This document shows positions 61,256 to 63,676 of a stretch of 64,000 bases of DNA, piece by piece. The DNA is from Escherichia coli (GTDB taxonomy: Bacteria > Pseudomonadota > Gammaproteobacteria > Enterobacterales > Enterobacteriaceae). The notes beneath the pieces were generated by a model. That model did not search any database. It had not been told where the DNA came from and saw nothing but the letters and a program-made list of their open reading frames with translations. The position numbers were made by a program, and so were the translations under genes. The DNA is taken from NCBI RefSeq assembly GCF_045037415.1, contig NZ_CP173438.1. One strand, 5' to 3'. Position 1 is the stretch's first letter. Each line of letters opens with the position of its first letter.

Positions 61256-62755
61256 TTATCTTCTGTCCGGAAGAATCAGAGGCTGCGGTTTCAGACTGTC
61301 TGCCGGTACATTCCTCTCCCCGTTAAAAACCATAACGGGTTCATTATCTTCGTCTGTCAGCGGATTGAATGGCGGTATATTTTCAGTACGAATGCCGGTC
61401 AGCCACTGAAAAATACCTGCGAAATGACGGGCACTGATTTTTCTGCTGACGGACTGATGAGACGTGATGTCACTGGCGGTAATAATCAGGGGAACGCTGT
61501 AGCCTCCCTGCACATGACCATCATGATGAACAGGATTAGCACTGTCGCTGACCGACAGACCATGGTCAGAAAAGTAAAGCATGGCAAAATGACGGGAATG
61601 CCGGCGAAGGATACCATCAAGCTGACCGAGAAAGTTATCCAGTTTACTGATGCTGGCGAGGTAACAGGCAACCTTTCGGGGATACTGCTCCAGGTAATGA
61701 TTCGGCCAGGAGTGAAGCCGGTCACACGGGTTTGGATGAGACCCCATCATGTGCAGGAAAATCACCTTCGGAGAGGATTTATCCGCCAGTGCACGTTCTG
61801 TTTCCTGTAACAACAACATGTCATCCGTTTTACGGGAAGCAAAGCTGCCTTTCTTGAGGAAAACGGTATGCTCCGCATCAGAAGCAATAACAGAGATGCG
61901 TGTATCATGCTCCCCCAGTTTTCCCTGATTGGATATCCACCATGTGCTGTATCCTGCTTTTGCTGCCAGCGCCACCACGTTGTTGCCGGAATCAGGGTTC
62001 TGCTCATAGTCATAAATCAGTGTCCGGCTCAGGGAAGGCACAGTACTGGCTGCTGCCGATGTATAACCGTCAATAAATAAACCGGGAGCCGTATTCAGCC
62101 ACGGTGTGGTTGGCACAGGATAGCCATATACCGACATATAATCCCTGCGCACACTCTCACCAGTGACGATAACAATCGTGTCATACAACGGTACACCCGG
62201 CAGGATTTTCCAGTTGTCAGCCCCGTGCTGATTCAGTTGTTTATAACGCTGCATTTCACGCAATGTGTCAGTTGTCCCCACAACAATTCCTTTAACCATC
62301 CGCAACGGCCAGCTGTTTACTGAGCATAATACGAACAGCAGCAGTGCCAGCCAGTTACGGTGACCGCGGTGGTGTGTTCGCCAGAAAATCACCATGAATA
62401 CCAGAATCGCGGCACTGACCAGAAAATGATAAACAGGAATCATCCCGGTAAACTCCGCTGCCTCATCAGTTGTGGTCTGCAACAACGCGACAATAAAACT
62501 GTTGTTGATTTTACCGTACGTCATACCGGCAGGCGCATACAGTGCACAACAGAACAGAAATAACAGCGCTGTAATGGATGTGAGGGTATTTCTGTGTGCA
62601 AGGAGCAGAAGGAGAAACAGAAGCAGCACATTTCCTGTTGCATTCTTCTCAGTGTATCCGCATGCAATTGTGGTTATTGCAGAAACAACAAAAAAGAATA
62701 AAAACAATAAAATCCGGGGGGTGTTTCCCGGACAAAACAGTTTTCTGATATTCAT
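61256..62755 (-). CDS. sulfatase-family membrane protein, phosphoethanolamine-transferase-like (EptA/OpgE/YhbX family)
   Basis: 499 aa; N-terminal polytopic membrane domain (Leu/Phe-rich helices) plus C-terminal alkaline-phosphatase/sulfatase-like domain (DTIVIVTGESVRRDYMSVYGY..., HMMGSHPNPCDR...). Confidence 0.8.
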   Translation of the reverse strand: MNIRKLFCPGNTPRILLFLFFFVVSAITTIACGYTEKNATGNVLLLFLLLLLAHRNTLTSITALLFLFCCALYAPAGMTYGKINNSFIVALLQTTTDEAAEFTGMIPVYHFLVSAAILVFMVIFWRTHHRGHRNWLALLLFVLCSVNSWPLRMVKGIVVGTTDTLREMQRYKQLNQHGADNWKILPGVPLYDTIVIVTGESVRRDYMSVYGYPVPTTPWLNTAPGLFIDGYTSAAASTVPSLSRTLIYDYEQNPDSGNNVVALAAKAGYSTWWISNQGKLGEHDTRISVIASDAEHTVFLKKGSFASRKTDDMLLLQETERALADKSSPKVIFLHMMGSHPNPCDRLHSWPNHYLEQYPRKVACYLASISKLDNFLGQLDGILRRHSRHFAMLYFSDHGLSVSDSANPVHHDGHVQGGYSVPLIITASDITSHQSVSRKISARHFAGIFQWLTGIRTENIPPFNPLTDEDNEPVMVFNGERNVPADSLKPQPLILPDRR

Positions 62756-62935
62756 CGGAGTATATCGACAACATTATTATGAAGAGAACAGGATAATAAA
62801 AATCAGAATTATCTGTAAAACAGATAACAGACAACCCTGCAGTAATAGACTGCAGGGTATTTCTGTTTAATTGCAGAAGATATGCAATTATCTTAATTAC
62901 AGAATATACGCAATTATCGTTCAGGAGCAGTGTCG

Positions 62936-63676
62936 TCAGAAGTTATAAGTCATACCAAGCATGATGTCATGACTTTTAACATCAACTTCTGACTTATATT
63001 TATCGCCCCACTCGTCCTTGTAACTCACACTGCTGTCACCTGCATCAAGATAGCGATAGCTGAGGTCCAGAGCGATATCCGGGGTTACGTCATAGCGGAC
63101 ACCCGCGCCAAGGCTCCATGCGAAGTTGTCAGCAGAGCCTGAACGTGACAACGATTCGCGACCACTGCTTCCGTACTCATAATCCCAGGTACTGATACCG
63201 GTTGTTTTCTGGTGAATTCTGGCGTAGCCAATCCCTGCGGATACCCATGGTGTGAATGCGCTGTCATTCCGGAAGTCATAGTACGCATTCAGCATTAGTG
63301 TGTTGACTGACACCTCATTCTTCAGGTCATCACGCCAGTAACCACCTGACCAGCTGTCTTTATCTACGTTATACTTCGAATCAGCTTTTCCACGAGCGTA
63401 AAACTCCAGTTCTGTACGAACCGGAATACTGAACTGCGGATAAAAATCATAACCGACCGCAATACCGCCACTGAATACCGTATCATGGTCATCGCCGCCT
63501 TTATACTTTGATGTTTCTTCCTCATCTCCTGACAGGAAACGCTGGTCTGAAAGTGACATCACAGAGGCACCGGCTTTACCGGTCAGATAAAAACCGCTTT
63601 TACCTTCCTTTGCTCCTGCATTTACTGCAAATACACAGGCTGCGGCCACCACTGAAACAACAAAAACCTTATTCAT
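62936..63676 (-). CDS. outer-membrane beta-barrel protein (OmpA-like barrel / Ail-OmpX-PagC-like)
   Basis: Signal peptide (MNKVFVVSVVAAACVFAVNAGA), alternating aromatic/polar strands, C-terminal ...LGMTYNF ending in Phe as in OM barrel proteins; start assumed at the Met of MNKVF (ORF track starts 5 codons upstream). Confidence 0.75.
   Translation of the reverse strand: MNKVFVVSVVAAACVFAVNAGAKEGKSGFYLTGKAGASVMSLSDQRFLSGDEEETSKYKGGDDHDTVFSGGIAVGYDFYPQFSIPVRTELEFYARGKADSKYNVDKDSWSGGYWRDDLKNEVSVNTLMLNAYYDFRNDSAFTPWVSAGIGYARIHQKTTGISTWDYEYGSSGRESLSRSGSADNFAWSLGAGVRYDVTPDIALDLSYRYLDAGDSSVSYKDEWGDKYKSEVDVKSHDIMLGMTYNF

Follow-up and report, generated by a model that had tools for sequence, protein, structure and literature searches.

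What do the two genes at the integrase-proximal end of a tRNA-associated island in Escherichia coli encode, and do they together remodel the cell envelope? We analysed a stretch of 64,000 nucleotides (nt) from contig NZ_CP173438.1 (assembly GCF_045037415.1), hereafter the window, in which positions 61256-63676 hold two minus-strand genes. A first-pass annotation had read these as an EptA-family phosphoethanolamine (pEtN) transferase, acting on lipid A or the lipopolysaccharide (LPS) core, and a small outer-membrane (OM) barrel of the Ail/PagC/OmpX type, next to a phage-defence gene. Our data make it very likely that they are two intact accessory genes, hek and a gene for an OpgE-like pEtN transferase, positioned on the integrase side of a papGII pathogenicity island at pheU. 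The two genes are:

61256-62755, minus strand: pEtN transferase gene of YjgX type (OpgE-like), intact, inner-membrane protein of 499 amino acids (aa); from the open reading frame (ORF) list, Pfam PF00884 at 1e-36, RefSeq WP_001535067.1.
62936-63676, minus strand: hek, OM adhesin/invasin of the Hra family, 246 aa (741 nt); RefSeq WP_001045029.1, Pfam PF13505 at 1e-20.

Both genes were found where the first-pass annotation had placed them, on the strand opposite to the integrase and the helicase-nuclease gene; the latter and the transferase gene are convergent and 108 nt apart. WP_001535067.1, named 'phosphoethanolamine transferase' in RefSeq, is identical to the 499-aa protein. For hek the ORF listing starts at an upstream ATG (62936-63691, minus strand, 251 aa), and position 63676 is the second ATG, which is the start used by RefSeq and has a GGAG motif 9 nt upstream. 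Since the sequences of the transferase and the barrel protein each occur unchanged in a large public protein cluster (8941 and 1280 distinct sequences), we consider both to be real genes and not chance ORFs. The 2.9-kb segment spanning them is 100% identical to many chromosomes from extraintestinal pathogenic E. coli (ExPEC) strains, including those of UTI89, NU14, UM146 and sequence type 131 (ST131)-type strains, and the G+C content falls to 0.38-0.43 both upstream of hek and near the junction between hek and the transferase gene.

By every computable feature the 499-aa protein is predicted to be a bona fide pEtN transferase. A Pfam search gave Sulfatase (PF00884; i-Evalue 1e-36, residues 193-446), as expected for the sulfatase fold that had been proposed, together with a weak match to EptA_B_N (3.5e-5), and five hydrophobic segments are located ahead of the catalytic domain. 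The catalytic set that was tested comprises the Thr nucleophile, the Glu, Asp and His metal ligands and the HxxGxH histidines; the residues E200, T238, H335, H340, D397 and H398 are unchanged across EptA, EptB, EptC, OpgE, YhbX and 36 homologues, and they align with the motifs of MCR-1 and EcEptC in alignments with PDB sequences, i.e. the full nucleophile and metal-binding set is kept. The AlphaFold2 model (predicted local distance difference test, pLDDT, 89.4; predicted TM-score, pTM, 0.85) was used as query in Foldseek and matched the EcEptC catalytic domain with an E value of 1.7e-18 as well as full-length MCR-1 (9nww, query TM-score, TMq, 0.62) and NmEptA (5fgn, TMq 0.60), the last two over approximately 550 aligned columns each. 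Between intact alleles differing at a synonymous divergence (dS) of 0.15-0.55 the ratio of nonsynonymous to synonymous divergence (dN/dS) is 0.12-0.20, which argues for sustained purifying selection, and the family is conserved across genera.

To which branch of the superfamily the enzyme belongs was addressed by BLASTP comparison with the K-12 paralogues EptA, EptB, EptC, OpgE and YhbX and with Shigella Lpt-O. The nearest K-12 paralogue is OpgE (237 bits and 30% identity over 513 aligned positions, with both proteins covered from end to end), followed by YhbX (105 bits), EptC (94 bits), EptB (55 bits) and EptA (45 bits). EptA (with MCR-1), EptB and EptC (CptA) share the fold and the catalytic Thr, Glu, Asp and His with the transferase, and the identity to EptA, EptB and EptC is 22-26% and limited to the catalytic domain (22% for EptA and 23% for EptB). 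The best NCBIfam and PDB sequence matches are CptA/EptC; all NCBIfam models were nevertheless missed by a wide margin, at 18-108 bits versus cut-offs of 404-1250 (CptA 108/404, EptB 49/493, generic lipid A transferase 71/500, EptA 39-58/561-660 and MCR 18-34/1225-1250). Shigella flexneri Lpt-O (Opt), a plasmid-borne O-antigen pEtN transferase of approximately 500 aa that is mobile, accessory and modifies a surface glycan (PMC3458804), was tried as the closest relative and rejected; it resembles our protein as a mobile accessory pEtN transferase of about the same size, but sequence similarity is undetectable (E = 3.2).

The best characterised relative is OpgE (YbiP), which is the osmoregulated-periplasmic-glucan (OPG) pEtN transferase of E. 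coli (PMC3818809). It shares with the transferase the catalytic residues and the layout of an N-terminal transmembrane bundle with a sulfatase domain in the periplasm, whereas a His at 410/411 is kept in the transferase and absent from OpgE. The opgE gene is core: 5420 of the 5426 complete E. coli genomes have it, separate from the gene studied here, which in contrast is accessory, island-borne and sometimes present in multiple copies. Given an identity of only 30% and the separate presence of the true opgE in these 5420 genomes, the transferase is an OpgE paralogue and not an orthologue. Two plasmid-encoded paralogues group with the transferase and OpgE; the 52%-identical one is on large plasmids beside DUF2569 and thermonuclease genes, the 30%-identical one is on a 5-kb ColE1-type E. 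coli plasmid, and neither has a barrel partner. These sequence comparisons place the transferase as an accessory paralogue within an OpgE-like clade and not as an orthologue of EptA, EptB or CptA, and the original assignment to the EptA family of lipid A or core enzymes was not borne out.

A decayed homologue of the gene is present in K-12, where the pseudogene yjgX, located beside intB at leuX, matches the gene over approximately 78% of its length with a DNA identity of 92% (about 92% over the 3' 1174 nt). As in the window, yjgX adjoins a P4-type integrase at a tRNA gene; it is, however, disrupted, cut short and without an upstream hek, while the window copy is full-length and intact. Judged from this alignment, the transferase gene is the intact form of yjgX. 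The view that neither gene belongs to the K-12 backbone at this position therefore stands for pheU, where K-12 has only the yjdQ integrase remnant followed by cadC, but has to be qualified by the decayed copy at leuX. Transferases of the YjgX/YhbX type were reported at every pheU, pheV and selC insertion analysed (PMC6174562), and deletion of yjgX in K-12 was published as a false positive in a defensin screen.

Prevalence was counted in the same 5426 genomes, either as any match or as a match of at least 80% of the query length. The transferase gene was detected in 2914 genomes and at ≥80% length in 1450 (27%), at up to five places per genome; the corresponding numbers are 1326 and 1087 (20%) for hek and 3016 and 1000 for the 2.9-kb query over both genes. 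Both genes are accessory in E. coli, as had been supposed, and not ubiquitous core genes.

Turning to the barrel, the 251-aa form has exactly the sequence of UniRef Q93LE3, 'Adhesin/virulence factor Hek', and the protein is identical to Hek of E. coli K1 RS218 (Fagan & Smith 2007; Fagan et al. 2008), so on sequence the gene product is the published adhesin/invasin Hek and is already known. Pfam gave OMP_b-brl (PF13505, 1e-20) and weaker matches to OmpA_membrane, Opacity and OmpW. The Ail_Lom family (PF06316) was insignificant (i-Evalue 0.034, 14.3 bits), well below OMP_b-brl, OmpA_membrane and Opacity. The best NCBIfam match was the rickettsial Adr, under its cut-off, and the nearest solved structures by sequence were those of Opa60 (approximately 1e-4). 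A typical signal peptide, MNKVFVVSVVAAACVFAVNAGA|KE (ending AGA|KE), is present, and the C-terminus reads TYNF with Phe as the last residue. Hek is 91% identical to Hra1 of enteroaggregative E. coli (EAEC) 042 and 65% identical to Tia. The Hra family, i.e. Hra1, Hra2, Tia and Hes with Salmonella PagN as a more distant member, shares OMP_b-brl, the signal peptide, the C-terminal Phe and a tRNA-linked island with Hek in the window. Thus, of the first-pass description, a small OM barrel involved in adhesion was correct and the Ail/PagC/OmpX type was not. For Hek and its family an eight-stranded barrel (strand number from PMC2553418) with four loops, heat-resistant haemagglutination, autoaggregation, dependence on loop 2, binding to heparan-sulfate proteoglycans, adherence and invasion have been described (PMC2553418, PMC5539235). 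In PADLOC neither Hek nor the transferase matched a defence family.

The two genes occur together well beyond the window. In nine of nine E. coli loci inspected (the window, UTI89, strain 439, the Tia locus, EAEC 042 and four further loci chosen from the 93-97% identity range) a gene for an outer-membrane protein (OMP) of the Hra family is located immediately upstream of the transferase gene, on the same strand and at a distance of 150-185 nt. The same pairing was observed in a Salmonella contig and in two metagenome contigs, where identity to the window proteins is 51-53% for the OMP and 58% for the enzyme, and it is present in the LAA (adhesion and autoaggregation locus) island, from which SisA, the transferase and Hes have been removed as one block (PMC13340028). 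Among the 1087 genomes with a near-full hek, 1000 have it contiguous with the transferase gene. Relatives of the enzyme that are at most 52% identical have other neighbours and no barrel gene. A scan of genome contigs with the transferase yielded six loci, two of which were tiny E. coli-like contaminant contigs, and gave no synteny information.

Between hek and tia dS is 1.36, while between the adjacent transferase genes it is 0.145, and this difference points to a recombination breakpoint in the 180-nt spacer. On these values the adhesin gene would seem to behave as an exchangeable cassette beside a fixed transferase gene. In the searchable literature we found no paper linking hek, or the heat-resistant agglutinins, functionally with the transferase; the adhesin-transferase adjacency is the sole point that we found unreported, and it hints at functional coupling. 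In K-12 the opgE gene also adjoins a gene for a small OM barrel, ompX, with the two genes convergent (5451-7598 of the K-12 segment compared); as both the orientation and the barrel family differ from those of hek and the transferase, this adjacency is probably coincidental.

The spacer between the two genes contains the following candidate elements:

62867-62918, no strand assigned: tandem repeat of an imperfect 26-nt palindrome, two copies (88% identical), just past the hek stop codon.
62834-62858, minus strand: terminator-like hairpin between hek and the transferase gene, with a 10-bp G+C-rich stem and a T-rich tail, from a consensus scan.
62790-62819, minus strand: candidate sigma-70-like pair TTTACA-18-TATCCT upstream of the transferase start, a consensus match only.

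The hairpin is present in both the minimum free energy and the centroid folds of the 180-nt intergenic RNA (z = -5.07), and its stem is kept in the three E. coli loci that were aligned. It seems that hek and the transferase gene are transcribed separately, a hairpin terminator lying between them. No recognisable Shine-Dalgarno sequence was detected before the transferase start codon. The 26-nt repeats, of which the EAEC 042 locus has one copy only, could be a regulator site or an element resembling repetitive extragenic palindromic (REP) sequences.

The surroundings of the pair are those of an integrase-borne island at a tRNA gene, as had been suggested; the site is pheU, and K-12 is without the island there. 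The features flanking the pair, in addition to the helicase-nuclease gene, are:

55646-55721, plus strand: tRNA-Phe gene (pheU), the island attachment site and the only Rfam match in 55000-64000.
55919-57181, plus strand: P4-type tyrosine integrase gene (NF007246, 2.5e-74; RefSeq annotation).
63894-64000, minus strand, continuing past the window: 3' end of a gene for a 122-aa hypothetical membrane protein upstream of hek (UTI89 WP_001275822.1).

Upstream of pheU the genes dicD/yjdC are found, as in K-12. The 122-aa protein has one hydrophobic segment and matched no Pfam or NCBIfam family; in the UTI89 segment compared, its gene is at 22795-23163. The hek insertion site is pheU in the window but leuX (tRNA-Leu) in UTI89, where the order is integrase, 1171-aa AAA protein, transferase, OMP, 122-aa hypothetical protein, GTPase remnant and pap operon. 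Identity of 99.2% to this leuX island starts at approximately 56835, inside the integrase gene, and extends to the window end; this position probably marks a recombination junction, such that the 5' two-thirds of the integrase gene are specific to the site (pheU versus leuX), whereas both islands have its 3' end and the cargo in common. At the pheU junction the window has the same sequence as strain 439 and ST131-type genomes, in which the island runs on into the papG-II operon. Islands carrying papGII at pheU or pheV together with tia, hek or hra2 have been described (PMC7686366), and the region is of this known type, a papGII pathogenicity island at pheU in ExPEC, of a kind well known from uropathogenic E. 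coli.

Across the islands compared, the slot between the integrase and the transferase gene (57182-61255 in the window) is empty in some and holds mkoC in others, and the side beyond the OMP gene varies between dndBCD, a trio of TerB-N, ATPase and DEAD-helicase genes, and a type I restriction-modification system with a RelB-family antitoxin. A conserved unit of integrase, transferase and OMP genes flanked by variable defence-gene slots appears to be the common arrangement. In several loci a partial integrase pseudogene is located right after the OMP gene (L017, 6965-7150; L033, 5629-5811; L034 and L035, 5607-5792), and this remnant suggests that the integrase, transferase and OMP genes formed an ancestral island of small size, followed by other islands that were acquired in tandem.

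The gene on which the transferase gene converges is:

57633-61147, plus strand: Mokosh type II mkoC, encoding a superfamily 1 (SF1) helicase with a phospholipase D (PLD) nuclease, a frameshifted pseudogene (PADLOC MkoC).

The PADLOC model MkoC PDLC03924 gave 1685 bits with the intact UTI89 protein and 1530 bits with the 1050-aa ORF of the window. The gene has 3515 nt in the window versus 3516 nt in UTI89, owing to the loss of a single G at approximately 57980 in a GAGA context, and the deletion splits it into ORFs of 184 and 1050 aa, compared to 1171 aa for the intact UTI89 copy; one further substitution relative to UTI89 is at 60372. RefSeq marks mkoC as 'frameshifted' also in the matching strain 439. 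The first-pass annotation was thus right that a defence gene, Mokosh type II MkoC, is located beside the pair, but in the window this gene is frameshifted. With no functional defence partner in this strain, the proposed combined effect of envelope remodelling and phage defence is without basis here.

With hek and the OpgE-like transferase gene as two intact accessory genes of the island, their roles may be outlined as follows. Hek is exported by way of its Sec signal peptide and inserted in the OM as an eight-stranded beta-barrel, and its surface loops, loop 2 especially, on the basis of the published work mediate heat-resistant haemagglutination, autoaggregation and adherence and invasion dependent on heparan-sulfate proteoglycans. 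In the transferase, five N-terminal transmembrane helices anchor a periplasmic domain of alkaline-phosphatase fold with the full catalytic set; following the mechanism of the family, Thr238 would take pEtN from phosphatidylethanolamine and hand it to an envelope acceptor. Since the paralogy of the enzyme is with the OpgE lineage and not with EptA, EptB or CptA, a periplasmic or surface glycan (OPG-like or a surface polysaccharide) is a more likely acceptor than lipid A. The two genes travel as a conserved pair beside P4-type integrases.

EptC (CptA) acts on the core heptose (heptose I) and EptB on Kdo (3-deoxy-D-manno-octulosonic acid). An EptA-like enzyme acting on lipid A or the core would lower the surface charge and alter the susceptibility to polymyxin, antimicrobial peptides or phages. 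The superfamily, the fold and the catalytic residues common to EptA and MCR-1, the EptA_B_N match, the CptA/EptC best hits and the automatic labels on closer relatives (see below) are all in line with this; we nevertheless regard it as unlikely, given the distance to every NCBIfam cut-off and the confinement of the EptA and EptB similarity to the catalytic domain, while OpgE aligns over its full length. Deletion of the K-12 remnant also yielded no defensin phenotype that was validated, but this copy is itself a pseudogene. A lipid A role of the transferase is unsupported, and for a role in colistin resistance there is no support here.

Somewhat less probable still is that the pair is a functional module in which the transferase decorates the adhesin, or the LPS or glycan around it, and so tunes exposure, aggregation and antigenicity. 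Such coupling would fit the same-strand adjacency across the Hek, Hra1, Tia and Hes alleles and in Salmonella (approximately 55% identity), as well as the exchange of the adhesin allele while the transferase stays; LPS masks the related adhesin PagN (PMC2553418), and protein-modifying pEtN transferases exist, viz. PptA and CjEptC (PMC10525099). Hek, Hra1, Hes and Tia, however, work alone in K-12 hosts that are without an intact transferase, a conserved terminator-like hairpin followed by a promoter-like element is located between the genes, strain 439 has an intact hek beside a frameshifted transferase gene, the more distant relatives have no barrel neighbour, and the linkage may reflect only common descent of the small integrase-transferase-OMP island. 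That the transferase gene is decaying while it is carried along with the integrase module, without contributing at present, and that only hek matters would agree with the frequent pseudogenes (yjgX and strain 439, with full-length copies in 1450 of 2914 carriers) and with the missing Shine-Dalgarno sequence; we find it the least probable of the three, as the ORF in the window is intact with all catalytic residues, the dN/dS values are low and the family is maintained across genera.

Several points weigh against our preferred interpretation, two intact accessory genes of which one encodes an OpgE-like enzyme. Relatives that are 53-58% identical to the transferase carry the automatic database label 'lipid A phosphoethanolamine transferase', and an identity of 30% to OpgE is too low to read the acceptor from the sequence; in the searchable literature we found no experiment or functional study on the transferase or yjgX. 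The promoter and terminator calls rest on consensus matches. Approximately half of the carrier genomes hold truncated copies only, and in strain 439, which otherwise matches the window exactly at the pheU junction, a 1-nt insertion at approximately window position 61740 frameshifts the transferase gene (25957-27457) and leaves hek intact; because the gene often decays in this way, as it has in yjgX, the contribution of the transferase may be dispensable.

Much of what the locus holds is already known: hek is listed among the virulence genes of ExPEC, the island belongs to the described papGII/pheU type and the transferase has a routine annotation. What is added is an accessory OpgE-like transferase that is full-length in about a quarter of the complete E. 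coli genomes and has never been assigned an acceptor. As the en bloc deletion in the LAA island removed the transferase gene together with hes (PMC13340028), phenotypes attributed to the adhesin could be confounded. pEtN transferases have been reviewed as having 11 acceptor classes (PMC10525099), and there is a slim prospect that the two genes form a cassette whose enzyme represents a further class, acting on a glycan outside these 11 or on the adhesin itself. If so, in pathogenic E. coli and Salmonella the added pEtN would modulate the exposure of the adhesin, aggregation or recognition by the immune system.

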